From Sporomusaceae bacterium (GTDB lineage Bacteria > Bacillota > Negativicutes > UBA1444), in contig JAHDPL010000031.1 of assembly GCA_018434355.1 (NCBI GenBank), positions 567 to 64,566 on the forward strand: a stretch of DNA of 64,000 nt. Direction: 5' to 3'. Shown here in pieces: positions 481 through 63,512 of this stretch. Position 1 is the stretch's first letter. Each line of letters begins with the position of its first letter. The notes below the pieces were generated by a model. It was given only the letters and a program-made list of their open reading frames with translations. It searched no databases and had not been told where the DNA came from. Made by a program: the position numbers and the translations under genes.

Positions 481-1589
481 TCAGGGTAATCCAGCCAGGG
501 TTGCTTACAACCGTTCAGGATGAAGGACGCGGTAATTATCTCGCTTTTGGCATGCCGCGAGCCGGTTTCATGGATCGTTATGCTGCCAGGATGGCCAATC
601 TGCTGTGCGGCAATCCATTGGCAGCAGCAGTCCTGGAAATGACAATTATTGGCGGCAGCTATTGTTTTGAATCGGCTGCCAGAATCGCCGTATGCGGCGC
701 GGCCATGCCGTTACAGCTTAATGGAGAATCGACTGCTGCCTGGTCTGCCGTGGAAGTGTCGGCAGGCGATGTTTTGGAAATCGGCGCCGCAACAACCGGT
801 TGCCGAGCTTATCTTGCGGTTGCAGGCGGACTTGAGGTTCCTCTGGTAATGGGGAGCCGTTCGACTTATTATCGGGCCGGCATCGGCGGATTTTCCGGAC
901 GCGCCTTAAAAAGCGGCGATCAGCTATTTTGTGGCGTACCGGGTCCTTTCGCCGCGGCGCCGATTCAGCTGCCTGCCGACTGGATTCCCGAATATCCGTC
1001 TCAGGTCGATATTCGGGTAATGACCGGACCGCAGGCCGAGTTGTTTTCTTCAGCGGGATTGAATGCCTTGTTGACGTCCGTTTATACAGTTTCTAATGAA
1101 GCAGACCGCATGGGATATCGATTGGAAGGCGAAAAAATCGAGCACTTGACAGGACCGGATATTGTATCCGACGCGTTGACGCCAGGCGCGATTCAGGTTC
1201 CCGGCAGCGGGCAACCGATAGTGATGATGGTTGATTGCGGAACCACCGGCGGTTATGCGAAAATTGCCACGGTGATCGGTCCTGATTTGGCGAAGGTCGC
1301 CCAGACCAAACCACAAGACAGCCTGCGATTCGTCAGCTGTTCGGACCAAGAGGCAGTACAGGCATTGCAACAGGAGATGGACCGTTATCGCCAGGTTGCC
1401 GAATGGGCGGCATGCGGCGAAGTGCCTGCAGTGGCAGTGAATGTTGCTTCGCCGGAGATGCCGCGTGAGGTGCTGCAGCTGCAAACCCAAAATCCTGCAA
1501 TGTTACCGGCGACGCGGCAAGTCGGTCGCAAACTGCGGCTGCATATCGCAGGCAAGAGCTATGAAGTAGAAATTGAAGAGGTGAAGTAA
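477..1589 (+). CDS. pxpC: 5-oxoprolinase subunit C (PxpC/KipA family) with an extra C-terminal tail of about 50 aa
   Basis: KipA-type sequence (IQPGLLTTVQDEGR, GAIQVPGSGQPIVMMVDCGTTGGYAKIA). The start overlaps the pxpB stop. Confidence 0.85.
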   Translation: MIRVIQPGLLTTVQDEGRGNYLAFGMPRAGFMDRYAARMANLLCGNPLAAAVLEMTIIGGSYCFESAARIAVCGAAMPLQLNGESTAAWSAVEVSAGDVLEIGAATTGCRAYLAVAGGLEVPLVMGSRSTYYRAGIGGFSGRALKSGDQLFCGVPGPFAAAPIQLPADWIPEYPSQVDIRVMTGPQAELFSSAGLNALLTSVYTVSNEADRMGYRLEGEKIEHLTGPDIVSDALTPGAIQVPGSGQPIVMMVDCGTTGGYAKIATVIGPDLAKVAQTKPQDSLRFVSCSDQEAVQALQQEMDRYRQVAEWAACGEVPAVAVNVASPEMPREVLQLQTQNPAMLPATRQVGRKLRLHIAGKSYEVEIEEVK

Positions 1590-2348
1590 ATGCAAATCGA
1601 TTTGAATTGTGACATGGGGGAAAGTTTTGGCACCTATGAACTGGGGTATGATGCACAGGCGATGCCTTTTGTAACTTCGATCAACGTTGCCTGCGGTTTT
1701 CATGCATCCGATCCCGACAACATGGCCAAAACCGTGGCGCTGGCTAAACAGCATGGCGTAGCCGTTGGCGCTCATCCCGGATATCCAGACCTAGTGGGAT
1801 TTGGGCGCCGCTCGATGGCACTGACGCCGGAAGAAGTCAAAAACACTGTCATATACCAGATCGGCGCGCTGGAGTCTTTCTGCCGAACGGCGGGAATCAA
1901 AATGCAGCATGTAAAGGTGCATGGAGCGCTTTATAACAATGCGGAAAAGGACCTGACGATTGCAACGGCGATTGCGGAGGCGATCAAAGCGGTTGATCCT
2001 TCGTTATACATGTTGTGCTTGGCAAATTCCCAAATGGGAGTGGCGGCAAGGAACGCAGGCCTGCCATATGTCGAAGAGGCTTTCGCCGACCGGGCGTATA
2101 CTGATGAAGGGTCGTTGGTTTCGCGAAAAATTGCCGGATCTGTCATCCACGACCTGGAGTTGGTTGTCGCAAGAGTCGTACAGATGGTCAGAGATAAGAC
2201 GGTAACTTCAATCATTGGCAATGTGGTGCCGATTAACGCGCAGACTATCTGTGTACATGGCGATACCCCGGGGGCTGTGGCAATGGTGAAAGCTATTCGC
2301 GCTGCACTGGAAAAGGAAAAAATTACTTTGAAAGCATTCGGTTGTTAG
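1590..2348 (+). CDS. pxpA: 5-oxoprolinase subunit A (LamB/YcsF family)
   Basis: N-terminus MQIDLNCDMGESFG is typical of LamB/YcsF. Starts directly after the pxpC stop. Confidence 0.9.
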   Translation: MQIDLNCDMGESFGTYELGYDAQAMPFVTSINVACGFHASDPDNMAKTVALAKQHGVAVGAHPGYPDLVGFGRRSMALTPEEVKNTVIYQIGALESFCRTAGIKMQHVKVHGALYNNAEKDLTIATAIAEAIKAVDPSLYMLCLANSQMGVAARNAGLPYVEEAFADRAYTDEGSLVSRKIAGSVIHDLELVVARVVQMVRDKTVTSIIGNVVPINAQTICVHGDTPGAVAMVKAIRAALEKEKITLKAFGC

Positions 2349-2422
2349 AAAACGTAGCGGCCCCCATTCCCTGCGAATGACATTTAGTGTATGATAAAGA
2401 TACTAAGCATGGAGGTGTTAGC

Positions 2423-2785
2423 ATGGCTATTTTAGAAGTGTTTGAAAAGGTCAAGAAACAACGTAAAGCCGCTGAAAAGAAAAAAGCCTTGAAAAATGTT
2501 GCCGTGGGCGCTGCGATTGGCGCGACGGTCGGTGCGGTTGCCGGAGTTTTGCTGGCGCCGAAGTCAGGCAAGGAAACCCGTGAAGAATTGACTGTAGCCG
2601 CTAAAGAAGCGGTAGAGAAAGCAAAAGAGAAAATCGAAGAAGCGAAAGAGAAGGCGGCTGAGGTCGTCGAAGAAGTCAAAGGACAAGTTAAACAAAAAAT
2701 AGACAATTGCCATTGCGGTTGCGAAGAGTCGTCTGAACCTGATGCGGCAGCAGAACTGTCTGCAGAGACGCCAAACAAAAAATAA
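2423..2785 (+). CDS. YtxH-domain protein (general-stress-type, N-terminal membrane anchor, Lys/Glu-rich coiled region)
   Basis: GAAIGATVGAVAGVLLAPKSGKETREEL is the YtxH signature. I chose ATG 2423 because GGAGGTG lies 6 nt upstream; the track ORF starts at 2387. Confidence 0.75.
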   Translation: MAILEVFEKVKKQRKAAEKKKALKNVAVGAAIGATVGAVAGVLLAPKSGKETREELTVAAKEAVEKAKEKIEEAKEKAAEVVEEVKGQVKQKIDNCHCGCEESSEPDAAAELSAETPNKK

Positions 2786-2829
2786 CGCGCAAGACTCCGG
2801 TGACAATAAAGTGAGGGCAGAAAGAAGGG

Positions 2830-3216
2830 ATGTTCTTGTACATTTCCCTATATGACGCTGGACTGCTGATTTTGTTTGCGGTAGCCCTGACCGTGGGCTA
2901 TTACCTTATCGTCGTATTGCGACGATTGTCGGAAGTGGTGCTGAGAGTCGGCGGAATGCTCGATGAAAACCGCAAATCGATCGAAGAAACGCTGGAAGTT
3001 TTGCCTGAACTGTTGAACAACAGCAACGAAGTCGTTGCCGGCGTGAGAAAAACAGTGGAAGCGACGAGTTCGGCGGTAACTTGTCTGGAAGACAACCTAG
3101 TCGATACTGCCGATAAAGTGCAGGAGACCATGGAAACTGCCATGTTATACGCCCGCTGCGCCGGAGAAGTGGTAAAGGCGGTAGTGGGTGCTTTCGGCAA
3201 ATCAAACGAAAAATAG
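2830..3216 (+). CDS. DUF948-like small membrane protein (usual partner of YtxH)
   Basis: One N-terminal TM helix, then a helical Glu/Val-rich region. Sits next to the YtxH gene. Family assignment is by eye only. Confidence 0.6.
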   Translation: MFLYISLYDAGLLILFAVALTVGYYLIVVLRRLSEVVLRVGGMLDENRKSIEETLEVLPELLNNSNEVVAGVRKTVEATSSAVTCLEDNLVDTADKVQETMETAMLYARCAGEVVKAVVGAFGKSNEK

Positions 3217-3231
3217 TATTGTTTGTTAAGT

Positions 3232-3272
3232 ACTCCGCGGCGCCTGTGTTCAGGTTGCTGCGGAGTTTTTTC
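3232..3272 (+). terminator. Rho-independent terminator after the YtxH/DUF948 pair
   Basis: ACTCCGCGG...CTGCGGAGT stem followed by TTTTTT. Confidence 0.8.
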
Positions 3273-3430: not shown

Positions 3431-5344
3431 ATGGAAAACAAGAAAAAATTGATTCAGGAATCCTGGGAACGTTGTCGCCAATATGGAATTGCCCAGAATG
3501 GCTGGAGTCAGGCGGAAGTTCTCACAGGAAAAGAGCTGGAAGCGGTTCTGAAAGATAGCCAGGAACTGATAGATTCAGCGCGATTGTTGATGCAAAGTTT
3601 GTACGAACTTGTCGCCAGTTCAGGTTTTGTCGTCGTATTGCTAAACGCAGATGGGTACATTGTAGAAGTGATCGGTGAAATGGATGACGCCAAATCTTCC
3701 TGGACTCGTTATTATGCACGAGGCGTAAAATGGACGGAAGAGCTAGCGGGAACCTCAGCGTTAAGTCTGGCCTTGCTTGGATCCGGGCCGATTCAGGTGT
3801 TGGGAGAGGAACACTACTGCAAGGCTTATGGAGAGTGGACCTGCTCGGCGGCGCCACTGATCGATGATTGCGGGAAAATCATGGGGGTTCTCAGCGTCAC
3901 CGGTAGCAAGGAAAATGTCCACTCACACACGCTGGGGATGGTTGTTTCGGCTGCTGCGGCGATCAACAACATGATCAAAGTTCGCCGGGCGCAAAAAAAA
4001 TTGGAAGATACTGCTCGGTTGCATGCGACGATCATTAACTCCGTATCGGATGGGCTATTGATGATCAACGGGCAAGGTATGGTGACTTTTATTAACCCGA
4101 CAGGCGCAAAGATCCTCAATGTTAAGCCGCAGGAGGCCGTTGGAAAGCATATTCAGGAGTTGGTCGACTTTAAGCCGGTTGTGCTCAAGGTGCTGGAAAC
4201 CGGTCAGGGATATACCGACAAAGAGTTTTTTATTGAGACCCGGCGCGGCGTCCTGCACTTCATCAAAACGGCGATTCCGCTGCATGATGCACAGGGCAGA
4301 CTGGAAGGGGTCGTCGATATATTCCGCGAAATCAAGCAGGTGCGTAAACTGGTCAATCGAATGGTTGGCGCGACAGCGATGTTTTCATTCGAGGATATCG
4401 TGGGTGAAAGTCCGTGTATGATGGAAATCAAGCGATTGGCCAAAATCGCTGCCAATAGCCTAGCGACGGTGCTAATTCAAGGCGAAAGCGGCACAGGCAA
4501 AGAAATGGTCGCACAGGCGATCCACAAAGCAAGCAGCCGGTCGGAAGGCCCATTTGTTGCGATAAATTGCGGCGCGCTGCCGCGCGATCTCGTGGAGAGC
4601 GAGCTGTTCGGTTATGAAGACGGCGCGTTCACCGGCGCGCGCCAGGGCGGCCGGCCAGGAAAATTTGAACTGGCGCATGGCGGAACGATTTTTCTTGATG
4701 AAATCGGCGAAATGTCGCTGGACGTTCAGGTCAAAATTTTGCGTGTGCTGCAGGAAAAGCGCATACTGAGGGTCGGCGGCGCCCGCTATATGGATGTGGA
4801 TGTCCGGGTGATTGCAGCGACGAATCGTGAGCTGTTGCAAGCGGTTGGCGAAGGCAGCTTCCGACAGGATCTGTATTATCGGCTGAATGTATTGCCGATC
4901 AACGTGCCTCCGCTACGGGAACGGCGCGAAGATATTGAACGACTGGCCCGCTTCTTTATGGAAAAAACCTGCGAGCAGCTTGGCGTTCCGCAAAAAAGCC
5001 TTTCCGCCTCGGCGCTGGCTGTGTTGCGCCGCTATGACTGGCCGGGAAATGCCCGCGAACTGGAAAATGTGATTGAACGGGCCGGACATTTCTGTGAAGG
5101 GCTGGAGATCACGGAACAGCATCTGCCGCCGAACCTGTTTGTCGCAAATACGGCTGGAATAAAAGAAAGCCGATCTCTGCGCGATTTGGAACGATTGGCG
5201 ATCGAAGAGACGTTGAATAAAACGCAGGGGAATGTTTCGCGCAGCGCCAGACTGCTTGGCGTGGGGCGCAACACTTTGTATGGCAAGATAAAAGAGTACC
5301 AAATCGAACTCAAGAAAGAAAACCGTTCGATTTACGAACAGTAG
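3431..5344 (+). CDS. acoR: Sigma-54-dependent transcriptional activator, AcoR-like (sensor GAF/PAS region, AAA+, Fis-type HTH)
   Basis: GESGTGKE Walker A, ESELFGYEDGAFTGA (GAFTGA loop) and C-terminal HTH NVSRSARLLGVGRNTLYGKIKEY. I chose ATG 3431 (MENKKKLIQESWERC); the track ORF starts at 3275. Lies directly upstream of a -24/-12 promoter and the aco genes. Confidence 0.85.
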   Translation: MENKKKLIQESWERCRQYGIAQNGWSQAEVLTGKELEAVLKDSQELIDSARLLMQSLYELVASSGFVVVLLNADGYIVEVIGEMDDAKSSWTRYYARGVKWTEELAGTSALSLALLGSGPIQVLGEEHYCKAYGEWTCSAAPLIDDCGKIMGVLSVTGSKENVHSHTLGMVVSAAAAINNMIKVRRAQKKLEDTARLHATIINSVSDGLLMINGQGMVTFINPTGAKILNVKPQEAVGKHIQELVDFKPVVLKVLETGQGYTDKEFFIETRRGVLHFIKTAIPLHDAQGRLEGVVDIFREIKQVRKLVNRMVGATAMFSFEDIVGESPCMMEIKRLAKIAANSLATVLIQGESGTGKEMVAQAIHKASSRSEGPFVAINCGALPRDLVESELFGYEDGAFTGARQGGRPGKFELAHGGTIFLDEIGEMSLDVQVKILRVLQEKRILRVGGARYMDVDVRVIAATNRELLQAVGEGSFRQDLYYRLNVLPINVPPLRERREDIERLARFFMEKTCEQLGVPQKSLSASALAVLRRYDWPGNARELENVIERAGHFCEGLEITEQHLPPNLFVANTAGIKESRSLRDLERLAIEETLNKTQGNVSRSARLLGVGRNTLYGKIKEYQIELKKENRSIYEQ

Positions 5345-5446
5345 TGTTCGATTGCGGAGCGATTATTGTGTTGCAAGAGTTGTAGTTATTTCGTGACAAT
5401 TCGTAAAACCCTTACTGTGAATGCGTTTGCGCAAACAATCATTTCT

Positions 5447-5462
5447 TGGCATGGTTTATGCA
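5447..5462 (+). promoter_or_regulatory. Sigma-54 (-24/-12) promoter of the aco-like operon
   Basis: TGGCAT-GGTTT-ATGCA fits TGGCAC-N5-TTGCA. It lies 49 nt upstream of the acoA ATG and downstream of the acoR gene. Confidence 0.8.
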
Positions 5463-5510
5463 AGATATATGATACTGCGTGAAAAGCTGAAACTTCATTA
5501 GGGGGGGAAA

Positions 5511-6491
5511 ATGTTGGCGTACAAAAAAGAGTTTTTGCAAAATCTTTACCGAACGATGGTGCGAATCCGACTGTTTGAGGAAAAAGTGGGCGAGTGCTTT
5601 CTAGGCGGCGAACTGCCCGGATTCGTACACCTGTACATCGGGGAAGAGGCGATTGCAACCGGTTTATTGAGCGAACTCAATCAGGATGACTATGTTGCCA
5701 GTACACACCGCGGGCATGGCCACTGCATCGCCAAAGGGGCAAAAATCAAGCCGATGATGGCTGAGATTTTCGGAAAATCAACGGGTTACTGCAAGGGTAA
5801 GGGCGGTTCGATGCATATTGCTGATTTTTCGGTCGGCATGCTCGGCGCAAACGGCGTGGTCGGCGGCGGGATCAACCTGGCGGTCGGGGCGGCGCTGGCG
5901 GCGAAAATGAAAAAGTCCGGTCAAGTTGCCGTTACGTTCTTTGGTGATGGCGGCGCCAATCGCGGCACTGTGCATGAAGGCATGAACATGGCGGCAATCT
6001 GGAAACTGCCGGTGATTTTTGTCTGTGAATTTAACCAGTATGCATCGACGACGCCCAGCAGTTACGGCACTTCGGTGCCGAATCTGGCCGTGCGGGCGCA
6101 GGGCTATAATATGCCGGGCGTTACGGTTGACGGCAACGATGTGTTTGCTGTCAATGAAGCGGCAAAAAAGGCGCTTGAATATGTCCGGGCAGGCAATGGT
6201 CCGTATATGCTGGAATTCAAGACTTACCGGATCAAGGGACACTATGTAGGCGACCCGGAGCTATATCGCAGCAAACAGGAAGTTCAGGACCACTTTGACA
6301 AAAATGACCCGTTGAAAAACTTCGCCAAAGTGGTGCTGGCGAAGAAGTGGCTGTCGCAAAAAGACATGGATGCAATCTATGCCGAAGTGGCTGCGGAGGT
6401 AAAAACCGCCGTTGATGATGCACGGAAAGACCCATACCCGACCGACAGCGAGCTGTTTAATGACTACTATGTTGAAGGCGGGGTGAACTAA
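5511..6491 (+). CDS. acoA: Acetoin:acceptor oxidoreductase / 2-oxoacid dehydrogenase E1 alpha subunit (TPP-dependent)
   Basis: TPP motif GDGGANRGTVHEGMNMAAIWKLPVIFVCEFN. AcoA-like N-terminus and length (326 aa). Confidence 0.85.
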   Translation: MLAYKKEFLQNLYRTMVRIRLFEEKVGECFLGGELPGFVHLYIGEEAIATGLLSELNQDDYVASTHRGHGHCIAKGAKIKPMMAEIFGKSTGYCKGKGGSMHIADFSVGMLGANGVVGGGINLAVGAALAAKMKKSGQVAVTFFGDGGANRGTVHEGMNMAAIWKLPVIFVCEFNQYASTTPSSYGTSVPNLAVRAQGYNMPGVTVDGNDVFAVNEAAKKALEYVRAGNGPYMLEFKTYRIKGHYVGDPELYRSKQEVQDHFDKNDPLKNFAKVVLAKKWLSQKDMDAIYAEVAAEVKTAVDDARKDPYPTDSELFNDYYVEGGVN

Positions 6492-6492
6492 G

Positions 6493-7467
6493 ATGCGGGA
6501 GATCAGTTTTTCGGAAGCAACCCTGGAAGCAATGAGCGAAGAAATGGAGCGGGATTCCAGCGTCTTTGTCCTCGGCGAAGATATTGCCCGGCAAGGCGGG
6601 ATTTTTGGCCAGTTCAAAGGATTGCCGCAAAAATTTGGCACCGAGCGCGTTCTCGACACGCCGATTTCGGAAACCTCGATTGTTGGTGCGGCTGTCGGTG
6701 CTGCCCTGGCAGGGATGCGACCGGTTGCTGACATGCATTTCGCCGATTTCATCGGGGTATGCATGGACGAAGTGTTCAACCAGATGGCCAAAGTCCGCTT
6801 CATGTTCGGCGGCCAGTGCAAAGTTCCTATGGTACTGCGGGCACCGGACGGCATCATCCGCTCGGCGGCGGCGCAGCATTCGCAAAGCGTCGAAGCCTGG
6901 TTCATGCACATTCCCGGCGTAAAAGTCGTAATCCCCTCGAATCCGGCTGACGCCAAAGGACTGCTGAAGGCTGCAATCCGCTCGGACGATCCGGTTCTGT
7001 ACTTTGAGCATAAAGTTCTGTTCCCGATGAAAGGCCCGGTGCCTGATGGCGATCATATCGTGCCGATCGGCAAGGCCAATGTGTCGCGCGCCGGAAAAGA
7101 CGTTACGATCGTTTCTTATTCGCTGATGATGCATCGGGCATTGGAAGCGGCCGAAAAATTGGCTACCGAGGGTGTCCAGGCCGAAGTCATCGACTTGCGG
7201 ACCATCAGCCCGATTGACAAAGAGACCATATTTGAATCGGTTCGCAAAACCAAACGTTTGGTCATTGTGCATGAAGCGGTGAAACAAGGCGGCGTAGGCG
7301 CAGAAATTTCTGCCTTGGTTGCAGAAGAGATGATCGACTGGCTCGATGCCCCGATTCGTCGTATCGGCGCTCCGTTTGTTCCGGTGCCGTTCAGCCCGCC
7401 GCTGGAACAACTCGTCAAGATTTCGGCCGACAATATCGTCAAAACGGTCAAGGAGATCTGCCGGTAA
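6493..7467 (+). CDS. acoB: E1 beta subunit (transketolase-like pyrimidine-binding and C-terminal domains)
   Basis: Starts 1 nt after the acoA stop. Typical E1-beta sequence (VLDTPISETSIVGAAVGAALAGMRPV, EHKVLF). Confidence 0.85.
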   Translation: MREISFSEATLEAMSEEMERDSSVFVLGEDIARQGGIFGQFKGLPQKFGTERVLDTPISETSIVGAAVGAALAGMRPVADMHFADFIGVCMDEVFNQMAKVRFMFGGQCKVPMVLRAPDGIIRSAAAQHSQSVEAWFMHIPGVKVVIPSNPADAKGLLKAAIRSDDPVLYFEHKVLFPMKGPVPDGDHIVPIGKANVSRAGKDVTIVSYSLMMHRALEAAEKLATEGVQAEVIDLRTISPIDKETIFESVRKTKRLVIVHEAVKQGGVGAEISALVAEEMIDWLDAPIRRIGAPFVPVPFSPPLEQLVKISADNIVKTVKEICR

Positions 7468-55788: not shown

Positions 55789-58677
55789 ATGACCGTCAAC
55801 CAAGCACTGCTGAAAAGAATCGCCAAGCGGTTTCGCCAGGAGAAGACGATTGGTGATGCGATATTCAACGGCGTCCCCGGCATCATTTACCTGATTGATG
55901 CCGAGGGAATGGCCGTGCGCTGGAATCGCCGGCTGACGGAAAGCACCGGCTATTCGGACGAAGAAATTGGCCAGCTGCATTGTCTGGAATATTTTCGCGG
56001 CGCAGACGCAGAGCTGATTGCGCAGAAGGTGGCGCAGACGCTGACGGACGGCAGCTCGGACGCCGAGGTCGAGTTTTACCGCAAAGACGGTTCGCATTTT
56101 TCCATCTATCTGACGTCCGTTAGGGTGATCATTGACGGCAAGCCTTATATCGCCGGAGTCGGCATCGACATCAGCGAGCGGCGGCGCGCGGTGGAGGCGC
56201 TGGCCCGGTCCGAGGCGGAACTGCGGCGGCACAAAAAAGAGCTGGAACTGACGGTGGAACAACGGACCGCCGAGGTCGTGGCGGCCAACCAGGAACTGAC
56301 GGCGATGAATCAGGAAATGAGCGCGATGAACGAAGAGCTGCAGCACGCCAATAGCCAGCTCGGCGCGGAAATCGAACTGCGGCAGCAGCAAGAGGACGAG
56401 CTGCTGATGCGGGAACGCCAGTACCGTTCGGCAACCCGGCTATTGACCCGCCCGGTGGAAGAAACCGCTCCGGGTCTTGAGGCGATATTGCGCGATGCAT
56501 TGCAGCTGGTGAAGGCTCCGGCCGGCTATATCGGCCTTTACAACCCGGCGGAAAACCATGTCTGGCTCGGTCCGGTGATCGGTCCGCTGGATTTTGTGAT
56601 GATGAATCCGCGCCCGGCCGACCGAGGCGTGCTGGGGCATGTCGTGGAAACCGGCGAAACAGTCAGCGTGGAAGATTACCGGGACTATTCACGGCGCATC
56701 GACGACCCGATGCTGGCCCGGCTGACCAGCCTGATCACCGTGCCGCTCAAACACGGCGACCACCTAATCGGCACATTGACGGCGCATTGGCTGGATGAAC
56801 CCTACCCGTTCGGCAAGGAAGACGTCGAAGTGCTGACGCAATACGGCAACCTTGCAGCGGCGGTGCTGGAGCGGGCCGAGTCGCAGCAACGACTGGTGCG
56901 CAAGAACGAACTGTTGCAGAGCCTGGCGGACACGACGACGGCGCTGCTGGGGGAACTGGACCTCGGCATGGTGTTGCAGGGGATTTTGAAGCAGGCGACC
57001 ACATTGACCGGAATACCGCATGGTTTTGTCCAGCTGTTTGAAAAAGATGACAACATGGGAGCGGTGCGGGCCGGAGTCGGCGTCTATGCGGCGCAAGTCG
57101 GGACCACCGCCAAGGTCGAAGGCGGAGTATACGCCGAAGTGGTGCGGACCGGAAAAATGGTGGTAGTGGAAGACTATGCAAACTGGGCAAACCGACTGAC
57201 GACCAAGCGCCAGGCAGGTCTGAGCGTGGGCTTGCAAGCGCCGCTGAGGATCAACGACAAATTTATCGGCATCATCGGACTGGCAGCGTTTGGCGAGGCA
57301 GTGTCGCTGGACTCCGACAAACTGGCGGCGGTGGAACACCTGGCAGGCATTGCCGCGGTCGCGGTCAAGAACGCGCTGAGCCATGACGAGGCGAGAACCC
57401 TGGCTTATCAGGACGTGCTGACCGGGCTGGCGAACCGGGTCAGCCTCGGCCGCTGGCTGGAGGCGGAAATGCAAAGGGCCCGCTGCGCGCAAGCCCACGG
57501 CGCATTGTTCTTTATCGACATGGATGACCTGAAAACGATTAACGATACGTTCGGTCATTCGCTGGGCGACGAAGTCATCATCACCGCAGCCAGGCACATT
57601 CAGGACGCGGTCGGCAAGGAAGGATTCTTTGCCCGGATCGGCGGCGATGAATTTGTGGTCGGCCTGCCCGGCAACTCCGACCAGCTGGCGATCAGCATCC
57701 TGGCCGAGCGGCTGTTGCAATACCTTAGCCACGACTACGAGATCTCCGGCCAACACATCCACATGTCGGCCAGCATCGGCATCACGCTCTACCCCAGGGA
57801 CGGCGATACGCCGGACGAGATCCTGAAAAACGCCGACAGCGCGATGTACGCCGCCAAACGGAGCGGACGCAACTGCTGGTCGTTTTATGAACCGGTGCTG
57901 CAAACCGAAGCGTTTGAAAAAATGACCCTGACCAACAGCCTGCGGCGGGCGCTGGACCGCGAGGAGCTGCTGCTGCATTTCCAACCCTTCGTCCGTCTGC
58001 CGGACAAGCACATCATCGGCTTTGAAGCGCTGCTTCGCTGGAACAGCGCCGAACACGGACCTGTGTCGCCGGGCCGGTTCATTCCCTACGCCGAACAAAG
58101 CGGCATCATCGTTCCGCTCGGCTACTGGGTCGTCGCCGAAGCCTGCCGGTTTGCACAGCAACTCGGCGAAACAGGCCATGGCGACCTCTGCGTCGCGGTC
58201 AACATCTCGCCGCGCCAGCTGGCAGACGTCAACTTCATCGCGATGGTGCGCAGCGCCATCCATGAGTCGGGCATCCGGCCGCAGCAACTGGAAATCGAAG
58301 TCACCGAAAGCGTATTGATCGAGTCGATGGAGGAAAGCATCAAAAAGTTGCTCGCGCTAAAAGAACTCGGCGTGCGGATCGCGCTCGACGACTTTGGCAC
58401 CGGCTACTCCTCGCTGACCTACCTGCGGCGGCTGCCGGTCGGCACCCTGAAAGTCGACAAATCGTTCATCGACGATATTTTGGCGGACTGGGTCCAGGCC
58501 GACCTGGTCGGCTACATCATCGACATGGCCCACACGCTGAACCTGTCGGTCGTCGCCGAAGGAGTGGAAAGCGAGGCGCAGCTGGAAAAGTTGCACCAGT
58601 ACGAATGCGACTGCATCCAGGGCTACGTGTTCAGCCGACCGCTGCCGGCGGCGGAGGCGATGGGGCTGCTGAAGTGA
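55789..58677 (+). CDS. PAS-GAF-GAF-GGDEF-EAL signalling protein (c-di-GMP turnover)
   Basis: RIGGDEFVV (GGDEF), FEALLRW and DDFGTGYSSL (EAL), N-terminal PAS, a coiled-coil linker and two GAF-like regions. Confidence 0.9.
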   Translation: MTVNQALLKRIAKRFRQEKTIGDAIFNGVPGIIYLIDAEGMAVRWNRRLTESTGYSDEEIGQLHCLEYFRGADAELIAQKVAQTLTDGSSDAEVEFYRKDGSHFSIYLTSVRVIIDGKPYIAGVGIDISERRRAVEALARSEAELRRHKKELELTVEQRTAEVVAANQELTAMNQEMSAMNEELQHANSQLGAEIELRQQQEDELLMRERQYRSATRLLTRPVEETAPGLEAILRDALQLVKAPAGYIGLYNPAENHVWLGPVIGPLDFVMMNPRPADRGVLGHVVETGETVSVEDYRDYSRRIDDPMLARLTSLITVPLKHGDHLIGTLTAHWLDEPYPFGKEDVEVLTQYGNLAAAVLERAESQQRLVRKNELLQSLADTTTALLGELDLGMVLQGILKQATTLTGIPHGFVQLFEKDDNMGAVRAGVGVYAAQVGTTAKVEGGVYAEVVRTGKMVVVEDYANWANRLTTKRQAGLSVGLQAPLRINDKFIGIIGLAAFGEAVSLDSDKLAAVEHLAGIAAVAVKNALSHDEARTLAYQDVLTGLANRVSLGRWLEAEMQRARCAQAHGALFFIDMDDLKTINDTFGHSLGDEVIITAARHIQDAVGKEGFFARIGGDEFVVGLPGNSDQLAISILAERLLQYLSHDYEISGQHIHMSASIGITLYPRDGDTPDEILKNADSAMYAAKRSGRNCWSFYEPVLQTEAFEKMTLTNSLRRALDREELLLHFQPFVRLPDKHIIGFEALLRWNSAEHGPVSPGRFIPYAEQSGIIVPLGYWVVAEACRFAQQLGETGHGDLCVAVNISPRQLADVNFIAMVRSAIHESGIRPQQLEIEVTESVLIESMEESIKKLLALKELGVRIALDDFGTGYSSLTYLRRLPVGTLKVDKSFIDDILADWVQADLVGYIIDMAHTLNLSVVAEGVESEAQLEKLHQYECDCIQGYVFSRPLPAAEAMGLLK

Positions 58678-58701
58678 AAGTGAGGATGCACATGATATAA
58701 A

Positions 58702-58743
58702 AAGCAGGCTTTCGGCGGTATGGCCGGAAGCCTGCTTTTTTTT
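58702..58743. terminator. Bidirectional terminator
   Basis: AAGCAGGCTTTCGG...CCGGAAGCCTGCTT followed by T8, with an A-run upstream. Confidence 0.85.
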
Positions 58744-58759: not shown

Positions 58760-59026
58760 TTACTTGCTGACCAGGTAGTCAATCAGGGCGGCTTTTTCCT
58801 CGTCATTCAGCGTCGCGCCTTTGCCGATCATCCGGTTGACTGTTGTTTGCCAACCCGCGCGGTCTTTGGTTTTGCTGGTGATGCGGTCCAGACCGTGACA
58901 GCCGCCGCAACGATCTTCCATGATCGCTTTGCCATCCGGCGTACTGAACCCGTGGGTAGGTACACTGAACATCGCCAGAAAAACTGCCAGGACCAAACCT
59001 GCTGCCAGTAGCGTCCATTTGTTCAC
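58760..59026 (-). CDS. Small membrane-anchored/secreted mono-haem c-type cytochrome
   Basis: N-terminal hydrophobic segment and a single CGGCH haem-binding motif. GTG start after AAGGAG. Confidence 0.7.
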   Translation of the reverse strand: MNKWTLLAAGLVLAVFLAMFSVPTHGFSTPDGKAIMEDRCGGCHGLDRITSKTKDRAGWQTTVNRMIGKGATLNDEEKAALIDYLVSK

Positions 59027-59156
59027 TGCGTTCAGCTCCTTTTATTTAATGCTACTATTGCGATGAATTCGCGGCGGGGGAGGGAAATCCTGCAGGAATA
59101 TTGGTAGCTATTAGAGAAGGAGATTCCTGAATAAAAACCGGCAGGAGGTTGAAACA

Positions 59157-59642: not shown

Positions 59643-59781
59643 ACTTAGTGACCAGATAATCAATCGGGGCTGCTTTTTCTTTGGCGCTTAGCGTCGCGGT
59701 CGTTGGTCTTGCTGGCAGGGCGATTCGGCTTTAAGGAAATTGTTGCGATGAATTCGCGGCGGGGGGAGGGAAGTCTTGCAG
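59641..59781 (-). pseudogene. Decayed, internally deleted duplicate of the cytochrome c gene 3' end plus its upstream region
   Basis: 59641-59703 aligns with 58760-58822 at about 75% identity; on the minus strand it encodes ...ATLSAKEKAAPIDYLVTK* versus ...GATLNDEEKAALIDYLVSK*. 59742-59781 aligns with 59057-59095 (TTGCGATGAATTCGCGGCGGGGG(G)AGGGAA). The CxxCH-coding part is missing. Confidence 0.7.
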
Positions 59782-59822
59782 AGAGGGGGGCGAGGGGGGG
59801 TAGGAGAGAGGATGGGAAGTGA

Positions 59823-60116
59823 GAAATAAGAGAGAAGAAAGGCAGGTGCAAGGACAGCGACGCCGGGAAGTCGCCGGCAAGCAAGATTCCGGCGGATAAG
59901 ACCGTCATCACTCCAAATCAGACCGAGCAGAAAGTCGATGTATACCGCATTACGCTGGACAAGGCCAAGTGGGGCGTGAGTGGGCTGGTGCTGGCAGGTG
60001 GGTCGGAACCAGTCGAATTCGGCGGCGGACCAGCATACCATAACAAGGACTGGTCGGTCTCGGCCGGCGTGACGACGCGTAGCCGGGTGTTTGTAATGGG
60101 AACGAAATATTTTTGA
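59823..60116 (+). pseudogene. Start-less 97-codon ORF with host-like GC3-rich codon usage; probable 3' remnant of a disrupted gene
   Basis: The frame is open from the stop at 59820-59822 to TGA 60114-60116 (...KVDVYRITLDKAKWGVSGLVLAGGSEPVEFGGGPAYHNKDW...). There is no ATG/GTG/TTG near its 5' end, so it is absent from the ORF track. Confidence 0.4.
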
Positions 60117-60294
60117 TGGCAGAGCCGCTTTGGGAAACCGGGGCGGCTTTTAAGTTTATATAAATCATATAGCATGAAAAATAAACATGAAAGCATTGAT
60201 GTTTTAGAGGAATTATTCAATTTAATGACGAAAAGGATTCAAACGATACTATTGTTACCCGTAGGTTGTATGAAGCGATTCGAGGAGTGAGTTT

Positions 60295-61050
60295 ATGAAG
60301 AATTTAACATTTGTATTACGTGCGAGCATATTTGGTGATTTTTCGAAAATTAAAGTAAACCCCGAGACATCAATTAAACTCACTTCTTTATTCAGTCAAT
60401 ATGGGTTTATCCCTTCAATTTATCAGGAAATTTATCTTAATGAATTGCAAAAAAGGCAACAATTGCTTGAATTTGATCAAGGGTGGAACATTAAGTTCGG
60501 AATTAATCGAATTGACGTTGAAAAAACGTTAAATCCCAAAAATAGAGAGCTTAATTATAGATTGCCTGACTTTATTGGTACTGCAATGAAATATTTAAAT
60601 ATTATTATTGCGGAGTTTGATATTATGGCAAATCGTTTAGCGTTATTCTCTGACAATTTGATTGTTATTTCAGAAAAAAAGGTGCTTGATGACATATATC
60701 GAAACCTCACAAACCCTCTCGATGCTTATAGAGATGTGAGTGTTTCTGAGTGGAATTTAAGATCGGTGACAAGAAAAACTGTGAAAGATAATGGATGGGA
60801 AGAAATTTTCAATGTTATTGTTGACGTAAGTAGGTCAAAAGGCACGATTCAACTTGGCGAAGATATTCCAGAAGAGTCGATAGATGATTTGAGGATTTAT
60901 TTTGATATTAATACTGTTCCTGAAAGTGATTCGCTAAGATTCGACGCAAGTTCATTAGAACCGTTTTTTTCTAATGCGTTGCGATTTGTAGGTGAAATAT
61001 CTTTGCAGATGGAGGGGAGATTTAATGTCAATCTTTCAAGTATTAGATAA
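60295..61050 (+). CDS. Island gene A: hypothetical protein, 251 aa, no family recognised
   Basis: GAGGAG RBS 8 nt upstream, low GC. The 3' end overlaps gene B by 26 nt. Soluble, with mixed alpha/beta-looking composition. Confidence 0.75.
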   Translation: MKNLTFVLRASIFGDFSKIKVNPETSIKLTSLFSQYGFIPSIYQEIYLNELQKRQQLLEFDQGWNIKFGINRIDVEKTLNPKNRELNYRLPDFIGTAMKYLNIIIAEFDIMANRLALFSDNLIVISEKKVLDDIYRNLTNPLDAYRDVSVSEWNLRSVTRKTVKDNGWEEIFNVIVDVSRSKGTIQLGEDIPEESIDDLRIYFDINTVPESDSLRFDASSLEPFFSNALRFVGEISLQMEGRFNVNLSSIR

Positions 61051-61780
61051 TGAAAGTTCGATTGAGTCTGACTCCAAGAAAAAAATACAAGTAACGAAAG
61101 ATGTAATTTCGTTCATAACATTCACATCACCTAACCAAATAACCAAAGGAAAAAACGTAGTATCCGCGGTCCCAACTAACAGCGATATATTTGATATGAA
61201 GCAAAAATCCTGCTTTTTTTATTGGACTGATACAGAAAAAGCCAGAGGGTGGGACTTTGTATCATCGTCTATACCTGCAAGCGTTGAACAACGAGGAAGT
61301 CAGCATTGTGAGGCAATGCTGACATTAACCGTTAATTCCCCAGAATCGAAGCTTATTATTTCCCAAATTAATCGAGAAGAATATGAAGCTGGATATGAAA
61401 ACGAATCAGAAGATATGATGAAATTGCTGATAGAAAAATATGGAATTGATAGATTTGGTAAATGGTTGCTGGAAATTTGGAAAGAAGGGTATACGACGAA
61501 TCCGCATTTATGTGTAGGGATTTTGCATATGGTATCCCATGTTTCTCCAAGTTATATTGAGCCCTATGGGTCTAACATTGCTATGGCTGCTGTTTCGCAT
61601 AAATCAATGGAGGTAAAGGAGTTTGGCATAAAGGTTTTTGAAAATTGGGGCGACCCGCAATACATTAAAGTGCTTGAAATGATGGATTGCGGAAATAAGT
61701 TGATAGATTCGTATCGAAATGTTGTTATCAGTTCTTTGAAAAATGAACAAAAGGTGTGTAATAATGCCATTACTGCTTAG
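61025..61780 (+). CDS. Island gene B: hypothetical protein, 251 aa, no family recognised
   Basis: ATG 61025 is 5 nt after GGAGGGGAG (61011-61019), inside gene A; the track ORF starts at 60992. The C-terminal half looks helical-repeat-like. Confidence 0.75.
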   Translation: MSIFQVLDNESSIESDSKKKIQVTKDVISFITFTSPNQITKGKNVVSAVPTNSDIFDMKQKSCFFYWTDTEKARGWDFVSSSIPASVEQRGSQHCEAMLTLTVNSPESKLIISQINREEYEAGYENESEDMMKLLIEKYGIDRFGKWLLEIWKEGYTTNPHLCVGILHMVSHVSPSYIEPYGSNIAMAAVSHKSMEVKEFGIKVFENWGDPQYIKVLEMMDCGNKLIDSYRNVVISSLKNEQKVCNNAITA

Positions 61781-62276
61781 ATCTGCTACATTAAGTCGCT
61801 GGGTTGATATAGATGATGAAATTAATATTGAAGATATTGATGCAGATGCAATTACTGATTTGCGGACAACGAAAAATAGACTATCCATGTGGCTGATTAG
61901 CGATGATAAAAAAGATATGGATAATGCAATTCTTGCATTGGCAACAAATCGGGATGGCATTGAAAAAATGTCTGTTTTCTTTGTTGAATTAAATGAAGTT
62001 GAAAAGTGTTTTTCTATTCAAAACACGCCAGGCCAAAGCCCTTTTATTGATGTGAACTCTAGTCATCGAGATGTTTGTGGGTTGACTCATAAAGGCTTGG
62101 GGAAATTGGCCGGTATTTGTTTAAACTCAGTAAAAAATTCTAATTGGGAAGAAATTAGTAAGAATAGAATCAAAGAAATGATAAAAAATGCCATACAAGA
62201 AAAGAGATTGACACGTGATTTGGTTAAGAAAAAACTGCAGGACAATATAGAAAAGGAAATTGGTTGGGATTTGTGA
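61764..62276 (+). CDS. Island gene C: hypothetical protein, 170 aa, no family recognised
   Basis: ATG 61764 is 7 nt after AAGGTG (61751-61756), inside gene B, with a 17-nt overlap. The alternative ATG 61743 has no RBS. A terminator follows. Confidence 0.7.
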   Translation: MPLLLRSATLSRWVDIDDEINIEDIDADAITDLRTTKNRLSMWLISDDKKDMDNAILALATNRDGIEKMSVFFVELNEVEKCFSIQNTPGQSPFIDVNSSHRDVCGLTHKGLGKLAGICLNSVKNSNWEEISKNRIKEMIKNAIQEKRLTRDLVKKKLQDNIEKEIGWDL

Positions 62277-62310: not shown

Positions 62311-62339
62311 ACCGCTCACCTTCGGGTGGCGGTTTTTTT
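62311..62339 (+). terminator. Rho-independent terminator of the A-B-C operon
   Basis: ACCGCTCACC-TTCG-GGTGGCGGT followed by T7. Confidence 0.85.
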
Positions 62340-62452
62340 GTTTGTAGGCAGGAGTTTCTTTTGCATTATTGAATTGAATATCAACACTCCTGTTGTGCTG
62401 AAGAGATAAGGTTCTTGCTCATGAAAAAAAGTTTGTGGAGATGAAATGTGCT

Positions 62453-63370
62453 ATGGACAAAGAAAAATGGCGCTTGACAGAAGAATTGGTTGTATTGATA
62501 GAAAAACACATTTCGTCTGATTCAATAATCGAATATGATCAAAAACTTACAGACCTTTCTGGAGATAGCAGCGGTGGGCGCCAATGTGATGTCGTGATAC
62601 GGACGGGTAAGCCTCCGAGGGAAACCTTGACAATTGTAGAGGTTCAGGACAGGGGAACACCATTTAATATTACGACCTTTGATGGTCTGTACGACAAAAT
62701 GAGAAAAGTAGGTGCGCAGCATCTGATTTGTGTTTCAAGGCAAGAATTCCCCGAGTCTATAAAAAAAGCTGCTCTGCGACATGGTCCGACAATTCGGTTG
62801 GTTACGCTGAAAAACATTGAAGCAGGGGATTTCCCAATTAATTTTTGGGATAATACTATTGTTTGTGAACATAGGGGGATTATAAATATTGGCACAGTTG
62901 CTCATGGCGTGAAAAAAGGCGAAATTCCAATGCAAAAGCCTTCGAGTTCTAGCTCAAAAGATGAGATATATCTTTTGGGAGAAGAGAAGGCTTCAATTGC
63001 AGAGTTACTATTTCAATACATTGATAGAAACAAGTTGCTTTTAACTCCAGGTCTGAATGAGGTTGCAGTGAGCGTGCCATTTGACGATAGATGCCTGTCG
63101 TTTGTGTCAAGTGATAAACTAATCCAGGTAAAGGTTGATTTTTCAGCTACTGTTGAATTTGCCTACTATCGATTGCCGCTTAAGTATATGTCTTATAATC
63201 AACAGGATTGGAACCATCCTCTAGCATGGATTGCTGAAGCGAAAGGGACTGTCAATGGTAACGAAGTGACAATTAAAGGCTTAGTTAAACCAACAGGAGA
63301 CGGCAATTATGGATTCAATGTTATGGAGATATCACCCGGGTATAAACTGAAAGTGACTACTGCGATTTAA
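62453..63370 (+). CDS. Island gene D: hypothetical protein with an N-terminal PD-(D/E)xK-like (restriction-endonuclease-fold) motif
   Basis: RQCDVVIRTG...TLTIVEVQDRG...HLICVSRQEFPESIKKAA follows the beta-strand D ... E-x-(K/Q) pattern of Mrr/restriction-endonuclease-like folds. Start uncertain (GTG 62435, ATG 62441 or ATG 62453). The C-terminal ~150 aa are unassigned. Confidence 0.65.
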   Translation: MDKEKWRLTEELVVLIEKHISSDSIIEYDQKLTDLSGDSSGGRQCDVVIRTGKPPRETLTIVEVQDRGTPFNITTFDGLYDKMRKVGAQHLICVSRQEFPESIKKAALRHGPTIRLVTLKNIEAGDFPINFWDNTIVCEHRGIINIGTVAHGVKKGEIPMQKPSSSSSKDEIYLLGEEKASIAELLFQYIDRNKLLLTPGLNEVAVSVPFDDRCLSFVSSDKLIQVKVDFSATVEFAYYRLPLKYMSYNQQDWNHPLAWIAEAKGTVNGNEVTIKGLVKPTGDGNYGFNVMEISPGYKLKVTTAI

Positions 63371-63478: not shown

Positions 63479-63512
63479 GCCACCTCTCACCTTCGGGTGG
63501 GCGGCTTTATTT
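63479..63512 (+). terminator. Terminator-like hairpin sharing its core with the 62311 terminator
   Basis: GCCACCTCTCACC-TTCG-GGTGGGCGGC, an imperfect stem, then TTTATTT. It lies about 110 nt after the gene D stop. Confidence 0.5.

Follow-up and report, generated by a model that had tools for sequence, protein, structure and literature searches.

What a small group of overlapping genes does, and whether its products belong together at all, is the question raised by three genes near one end of a 64,000-nt stretch of the Sporomusaceae bacterium contig JAHDPL010000031.1 (GenBank assembly GCA_018434355.1, positions 567 to 64,566; this whole stretch is hereafter called the window). The genes, here called A, B and C, occupy 60295-62276 of the window, and an original prediction, made from the sequence alone, described them as translationally coupled orphan genes that form one tight operon. 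We establish here that A, B and C make up a conserved three-gene cassette, which is mobile and has evolved as one unit, and the settings in which this cassette is found lead us to propose, tentatively, that it serves in defence.

Three large protein families

The description of the genes as orphans proved wrong. A phmmer search with the concatenated A, B and C sequences against 1.84 billion representative proteins returned 2,551 relatives at E ≤ 1e-3, of which 599 were at E ≤ 1e-10. These fall cleanly into three groups. The A-like relatives are about 245 aa long and the C-like ones about 168 aa, and the B-like relatives align through their C-terminal half only. This exhaustive, unindexed search succeeded where word-indexed homology searches with A and C had given the query alone. 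Each gene also has relatives among the PHROG families, with A matching phrog_19817 (E 2.5e-11), B matching phrog_21208 (E 4e-10) and phrog_14576 (E 5.7e-6), and C matching phrog_10743 (E 6.6e-20). The matches are almost full length for A and C, and all of the matched PHROGs carry the annotation 'unknown function'. Using a fused B+C profile as the query, only B homologues from enterobacterial plasmids were recovered, each of them named 'hypothetical protein'. Hidden Markov models (HMMs) built for the three families score the window proteins at E 2.6e-73 (A), 2.2e-63 (B) and 8.6e-58 (C); the window proteins were in the seed alignments and these particular scores are circular, the independent support coming from the PHROG, prophage and phmmer matches.

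Against Pfam, NCBIfam and PADLOC the window proteins A, B and C gave no match, and the three family profiles found nothing better than E 0.77 among the sequences of the Protein Data Bank (PDB). Plain sequence searches of the PDB were likewise empty, and neither profile search (A, B and C) nor Foldseek (models of A and C) linked the proteins to a solved fold. No relationship among A, B and C themselves was detected (hhalign probability below 1%), in keeping with the earlier remark that A and B are equal in length, at 251 aa, yet not obviously similar.

A triad that is inherited as a unit

To sample gene order, one genome per species was scanned for a motif in B, [AG][IV][KR][AVC]FENW, which served where the C-family alignments were too divergent for pattern-based genome scans. 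The 34 loci returned were then searched with the family HMMs over six-frame open reading frames (ORFs). A check of gene order among homologues had been proposed with the original prediction, and its outcome was clear: in every sufficiently long locus the triad stands together, in the same order and on the same strand. This is the case in 31/31 loci of the genome scan with enough sequence, the other three being cut by contig ends, and order and single strand are kept in all of the approximately 45 loci with enough sequence. The bacterial loci of the scan come from Clostridia, Acetobacterium, Lachnospiraceae, Deltaproteobacteria, Spirochaetes, Bacteroidota, Planctomycetota and Acidobacteria, and from KSB1, WOR-3, Hydrogenedentota, Victivallales and Hyphomicrobiales. 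Two other loci of the scan lie in archaeal metagenome-assembled genomes (MAGs), labelled Methanomassiliicoccus and Halobacteria, and their presence implies exchange between domains. An all-against-all comparison of four genes on each side of the loci revealed no conserved neighbour; the cassette is self-contained.

The junctions between the genes are also retained. In 31 other loci a start codon for B lies at -32 to +14 nt from the stop of A, a figure that is biased towards small gaps by the rule of taking the nearest start codon. The start of C, which is anchored by a conserved N-terminus (M-x-x-L-x-R-K..W, position 1 of the HMM), overlaps the end of B in 24/32 loci, and overlap classes of -13, -17 and -26 nt recur. 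With values of -26 nt (A-B) and -17 nt (B-C), the window has tight junctions of this kind, which we define as an A-B distance within about ±30 nt and a C start at or inside the 3' end of B. An unusual form of the second junction is seen in two Lachnospiraceae MAGs (L059, 7248-7390; L060, 1353-1495), where the B frame extends 143 nt into C, well beyond the customary 13-26 nt. Either the overlap is truly this long, or B has lost its stop codon and been extended at its 3' end.

The three families have also diverged in step. Over 31 loci, the pairwise-identity matrices of A, the conserved half of B, and C correlate with one another (Spearman 0.64, 0.52 and 0.56; Mantel p ≤ 5e-4). In addition, one protein from the representative search (P0033, 404 aa) is a natural fusion that joins the conserved half of B to the whole of C in a single polypeptide. 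The junctions, the correlated divergence and the B-C fusion support co-inheritance and joint function. Taken with the invariant synteny and the lack of a fixed neighbour, they bear out the proposal of one tight operon whose products act together.

Prophages, small plasmids and low-GC islets as carriers

A tblastn search of phage genomes with C matched Acinetobacter prophages (Ab105-1phi, AbTJ and others), in which a row of three hypothetical genes has pairwise matches to A (E 8e-4), B (E 1e-9) and C (E 1e-14). This triad is located 3' of the tail-fibre and lysis genes, at the end of the prophage, where it adjoins a umuC fragment. IMG/VR holds 23 near-identical copies of it together with one that is interrupted by an insertion sequence (IS), and complete triads occur on four further IMG/VR contigs. 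In the interrupted Acinetobacter prophage copy (L025, 3964-4893) the IS element encodes a 309 aa transposase, and just the C-terminal part of C is left.

The second class of carrier is the small enterobacterial plasmid. A Klebsiella ColRNAI plasmid of 4,375 bp has the triad as its principal cargo outside the backbone; the three genes encode 229, 199 and 173 aa, and their junctions measure +1 and -1 nt. Records of the enterobacterial B protein span 259 blocks of the collection, mostly contigs of 2-5 kb. The longest of the contigs examined encode MobC/NikA and a relaxase, and where these contigs do not exceed about 5 kb they carry nothing besides the triad and the backbone. Klebsiella, Salmonella, E. 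coli, Cronobacter and Edwardsiella are the hosts of these plasmids. Within PLSDB the enterobacterial triad is found on only 3 plasmids, and at megablast level it is absent from 5,426 complete E. coli genomes. Two 15 kb contigs (L063, GCA_045581745.1; L064, GCA_023367615.1) place the triad beside genes for a Tn3-family transposase and resolvase and for the integrase of a class 1 integron, accompanied by a DHFR cassette, and the triad can therefore travel on plasmids with a resistance-gene cassette. A contig of 7.3 kb (L065) bears two enterobacterial triads in tandem, at 1451-3262 and 4957-6768, an arrangement that probably reflects dimerisation of the plasmid or wrap-around in the assembly.

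Many copies are isolated islets of 1.9 kb amid housekeeping genes, and the ±7 kb around them is otherwise free of phage and plasmid genes. The GC content of the cassette is lower than that of its flanks in 28/28 loci, by a mean of 9.5 points (-9.5; 0.346 versus 0.567 in the window), which indicates repeated horizontal acquisition.

Features of the three proteins

Like B and C, protein A is a cytoplasmic protein with no known domain. It is soluble and acidic, has an alpha+beta composition with two lobes and contains no transmembrane segment; its family HMM aligns over positions 1-244. The AlphaFold2 (AF2) model, based on 94 homologues, is of high confidence (pLDDT 94.9, pTM 0.91) and has a two-lobed alpha+beta fold with a long terminal helix. 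Foldseek of this model against the PDB gave nothing significant (best E 4e-3, TMq ≤ 0.31). A likeness to SecB was considered and rejected, the Foldseek values being insignificant (E 0.13-0.15, TM 0.10-0.16), as was an origin of the two lobes by internal duplication (hhalign probability below 1%). R114 and N206 are invariant in the family, which has an FDINT motif, and F13, P40, E45, R54, W153, E170, N173, D204, T207, R215 and F224 are nearly so.

The original prediction included a hunch that A resembles proteins of the TIGR04255 type, and this fared unevenly. Remote relatedness is weakly supported, in that TIGR04255 is the only NCBIfam model matched by more than one of 96 A relatives (3/96, best E 1.3e-4), and this family, described by NCBIfam as 'sporadically distributed', resembles the A family in its size and its sporadic spread. 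Protein A of the window itself does not match TIGR04255.1 at E ≤ 1, lies far from the curated cut-off and is not a member. It may possibly be a remote relative at most, and, as TIGR04255 itself is without an assigned function, the link would provide no mechanism for A.

Protein B is likewise soluble and acidic with no transmembrane segment. Its residues 1-100 are hypervariable in both sequence and length, and the whole protein ranges from 188 to 369 aa across loci. The family alignment and per-block conservation place a conserved helical half at residues about 101-245, with the repeat patterns ..GILH..SH.. and ..HK..EVKE.GIK.FENWG.. within it. The Pfam model HEAT_2 is matched by 4/26 relatives of B (best E 2.3e-4), HEAT and Cnd1 have single matches and PI3Ka is matched by two relatives, all of these matches falling below Pfam thresholds; B of the window matches none of the Pfam HEAT models. 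Apart from this weak HEAT_2 signal for B, Pfam and PADLOC scans of all family members gave no recurrent match. The conserved half thus appears to resemble HEAT repeats weakly. Compared with alpha-solenoid scaffolds of the HEAT_2 kind, the likeness seems to lie in a pattern at residues about 150-245, and the hypervariable N-terminal 100 residues resemble no repeat.

Protein C is a compact, soluble and acidic alpha/beta protein with no transmembrane segment, and its family HMM aligns over positions 1-166. Its AF2 model (pLDDT 93.8, pTM 0.88) shows an alternating beta/alpha fold, for which Foldseek found no neighbour (best E: PDB, 0.42; BFVD, 0.058). Six residues are invariant (R6, W13, D28, L40, S41 and H101) and ten are nearly invariant (A27, T35, W43, A58, G90, T92, D103, L107, L112 and A143).

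A proposed role in defence, weighed against alternatives

We favour, with a probability of about 0.45 and from context only, the reading that the triad is a horizontally mobile three-protein complex that defends its host, or the element that carries it, against phages or other invading DNA. This reading is based on the placement of the triad in prophage accessory slots, as sole cargo of small plasmids and in low-GC islets, on its sporadic spread over two domains, on the hypervariable segment of B and on occasional defence neighbours. Among 102 neighbours within ±2 genes, some match defence HMMs, namely those for a Type III methyltransferase, bSEFIR, RT/DRT, Cas1 and Stk2.

These features allow us to suggest how such a complex might work. 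Translational coupling would deliver the three proteins in a set ratio for assembly into a complex. The HEAT-like C-terminal half of B would act as a scaffold that holds C, a part that we assign to it because of the natural B-C fusion, and would probably hold A as well; B and C are likely to touch physically. A specificity or sensing element could be provided by the hypervariable first 100 residues of B, with A or C as the effector. Conserved polar residues in A (E45, R54, R114, E170, N173, D204, N206, T207 and R215) and in C (R6, D28, T35, S41, H101 and D103) form clusters that appear typical of a catalytic or ligand-binding pocket. In its most specific form, which we hold a little more loosely, the proposal is that the triad may be an unrecognised three-component immune system against phages or mobile elements, shared by Bacteria and Archaea and made of folds without a solved relative, in which A and C would be two new enzymes or ligand-binding proteins under the control of B, a HEAT-like scaffold whose hypervariable tail would do the sensing.

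Several observations weigh against a defence role. Most immediate neighbours are housekeeping genes, and the matches to defence genes were tallied over pooled neighbours. The models of PADLOC-DB v2.0.0 have no recurrent match among about 170 distinct family members: the window proteins have none at E ≤ 1, and at E ≤ 0.01 no model is matched by more than one member in the 96-member scan of A or in the 81-row scan of B and C. The proteins contain no recognisable nuclease, NADase, protease, ATPase or membrane effector domain. The borders of IMG/VR prophages are imprecise, so that what is taken as phage-borne may partly be host flank, and synteny was sampled through B only, so that A or C may occur alone elsewhere. 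Finally, the formation of a complex by A, B and C is something that we infer from genetics only.

The housekeeping surroundings of most chromosomal loci would also suit a non-conflict accessory function, which we regard as unlikely, albeit worth keeping in view. Here the triad would be a small enzyme or regulatory complex, for example in stress tolerance or in the modification of a metabolite or macromolecule, that spreads horizontally through being useful now and then. The invariant polar clusters of A and C are compatible with ordinary enzymes, and the lack of similarity to any defence model also fits such a role. It sits poorly with the lack of a conserved metabolic, transport or regulatory partner, with the occupation of accessory slots in prophages by the triad and its carriage on small plasmids that have no other cargo, and with its sporadic cross-domain spread and consistently foreign GC. 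A hypervariable segment such as that of B would, moreover, be unusual for housekeeping enzymes.

That the triad is the sole cargo of small plasmids could also be explained by a tripartite addiction module resembling toxin-antitoxin (TA) systems, in which one protein is toxic, one neutralises it and the third modulates, with a benefit that lies in keeping the plasmid, prophage or islet stably inherited and not in immunity. We consider this improbable. In favour of such a module, the cassette is selfish and self-contained, has a low GC content and lacks conserved neighbours, and TA operons typically show tight translational coupling. Yet no helix-turn-helix (HTH), ribbon-helix-helix (RHH) or AbrB antitoxin and no known toxin domain occurs in the window proteins or recurs in the families (Pfam: 96 A, 26 B and 33 C proteins; NCBIfam: the window proteins and the A family), and at 19-29 kDa each the proteins are large for TA components. 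High-copy plasmids of the ColE1 type, furthermore, have little need for post-segregational killing. As TA and defence roles overlap, an addiction module is not cleanly separable from defence.

The copies in prophages, viral contigs and plasmids, along with the membership of all three proteins in PHROG families, might instead mean that the triad serves the mobile element itself, through counter-defence, host takeover or superinfection control, with the chromosomal copies as remnants. This we judge more doubtful still, since many copies are isolated 1.9 kb islets with no other phage or plasmid gene in the surrounding ±7 kb, and very distantly related hosts, the archaeal MAGs among them, retain a complete and conserved cassette. 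Known anti-defence genes, moreover, are usually single and small. Lastly, the idea that A, B and C are chance ORFs or have mis-called starts, and that their overlaps are artefactual, has nothing in its favour beyond the starts being predicted and is effectively refuted by the full-length HMM matches (E 1e-58 to 1e-73), the conserved synteny and junction geometry, and the confident folds of A and C.

The operon and its surroundings in the window

The ORF list, the sequence and a terminator scan agree with the earlier description of the operon in its ORFs, its out-of-frame overlaps of 26 nt (A/B) and 17 nt (B/C), its internal ribosome-binding sites (RBSs) and its terminator (Table 1). The family HMMs for A and C start, at their position 1, at 60295 and 61764, respectively, which fits the chosen starts. 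Of the other candidates, a C start at 61743 would add 7 residues that are absent from homologues, and a GTG start for B at 60992 is without an RBS. A concern raised with the original prediction, that the overlaps might reflect start choice, is answered by the homology-anchored starts of A and C and by the recurrence of tight junctions in related loci.

Table 1. Positions of the operon, its signals and a nearby gene in the window.
Feature	Coordinates	Strand	Description
Small cytochrome-c-like gene	58760-59026	-	CGGCHG motif
AT-rich region 5' of A	60100-60294	+	Left edge of low-GC island; presumed promoter and 5' untranslated region
Shine-Dalgarno sequence of gene A	60282-60287	+	GAGGAG, 7 nt before A ATG
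Gene A	60295-61050	+	251 aa; TAA stop
Internal RBS of gene B	61011-61019	+	GGAGGGGAG, inside gene A, 5 nt before ATG 61025
Gene B	61025-61780	+	251 aa; ATG start, TAG stop
Internal RBS of gene C	61751-61756	+	AAGGTG, inside gene B, 7 nt before ATG 61764
Gene C	61764-62276	+	170 aa; ATG start
Intrinsic terminator	62311-62339	+	Terminator scan and RNA fold; closes A-B-C operon

The terminator consists of a GC-rich hairpin (62311-62333), capped by a UUCG loop, and a U-run 3' of it, and has a folding energy of -16 kcal/mol (z = -3.1 versus shuffles). At the other end of the operon, a scan for the sigma-70 consensus upstream of A found no match, and the promoter there is inferred, not located. The GC content falls from about 0.57-0.62 to 0.33-0.39 at 60100-60294, and from ~60100 to the end of the window it is 33-42%, compared with 55-65% upstream; the operon therefore sits in foreign DNA.

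The same low-GC island contains, downstream, a separate transcription unit consisting of gene D (62435-63370, + strand, 311 aa), with a terminator at about 63482-63510. Gene D had no match in Pfam, NCBIfam, PHROGs, the PDB or a plasmid tblastn search, its sole match being the PADLOC candidate PDC-S02 (E 0.017), and a D...EVQD motif in it hints at a PD-(D/E)xK-like nuclease. The hairpins at 62311-62329, after A-B-C, and at 63482-63500, after gene D, are 95% identical (ACC[G/T]CTCACCTTCGGGTGG), which suggests a terminator module that is reused within the island.

On the other side, the last clearly host-like gene before the island (55789-58677, + strand) encodes a 962 aa sensor protein, the C-terminal half of which looks, by eye, like a GGDEF-EAL (cyclic-di-GMP) module. 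A terminator-like inverted repeat (58699-58740) lies 3' of this gene. The region upstream of the small cytochrome-c-like gene has a direct repeat of 81% identity (59045-59087 and 59730-59772), and a GC-rich remnant with G-runs (59650-60090) is found between the host DNA and the island. The repeat and the remnant at the border of the island may be an insertion scar or a duplication.

Comparison with known systems

In the literature that we searched there is no published description of the A-B-C triad, and the sources call the proteins 'hypothetical'. Queries for TIGR04255, CHP04255, the PHROG identifiers and the RefSeq/GenBank accessions of homologues found nothing, and no matching system was found in general literature searches or in the DefensePredictor paper, the main text of which was searched by term. 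PHROG families 19817, 21208/14576 and 10743 derive from sequences of the sort that the Acinetobacter prophage triad (L001) represents; as far as we found, these families have not been brought together as a single system.

A defined activity, if the triad has one, would make it a system whose components are new and whose biochemistry probably is too. Two of its folds are confidently predicted and lack a solved relative, and the Arg/Asp/Ser/His and Glu/Arg/Asn/Asp clusters would point to catalysis or ligand binding. Carriage by Acinetobacter baumannii prophages and enterobacterial plasmids means that it could affect phage therapy and plasmid ecology in clinical bacteria. As the cassette is short (1.9 kb), self-contained and easily cloned, the hypothesis is directly testable. 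Some caution is warranted, in that many uncharacterised cassettes of this kind exist and the function may prove ordinary.

Tripartite TA systems of the toxin-antitoxin-chaperone type likewise have three translationally coupled genes on mobile DNA, but the triad differs from them in having no known toxin, DNA-binding antitoxin or SecB-like chaperone domain. A further parallel would be offered by Rst_3HP and PD-Lambda-2, which are three-gene defence cassettes of hypothetical proteins and for which PADLOC is understood to include models. Cassettes of this type are carried by prophages, satellites and plasmids, and the triad is comparable to them as a compact, sporadically distributed operon for three soluble proteins without an assigned fold that forms accessory cargo of prophages and plasmids. 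The triad differs from them in lacking recurrent similarity to any model of PADLOC v2.0.0; a match of one A-family member to PD-Lambda-2_C (E 0.002) was dismissed as noise. The general kind to which the triad belongs, the compact mobile multi-gene cassette, is thus already familiar, and, since A, B and C have no characterised family or solved fold, we regard the triad as new in its components.

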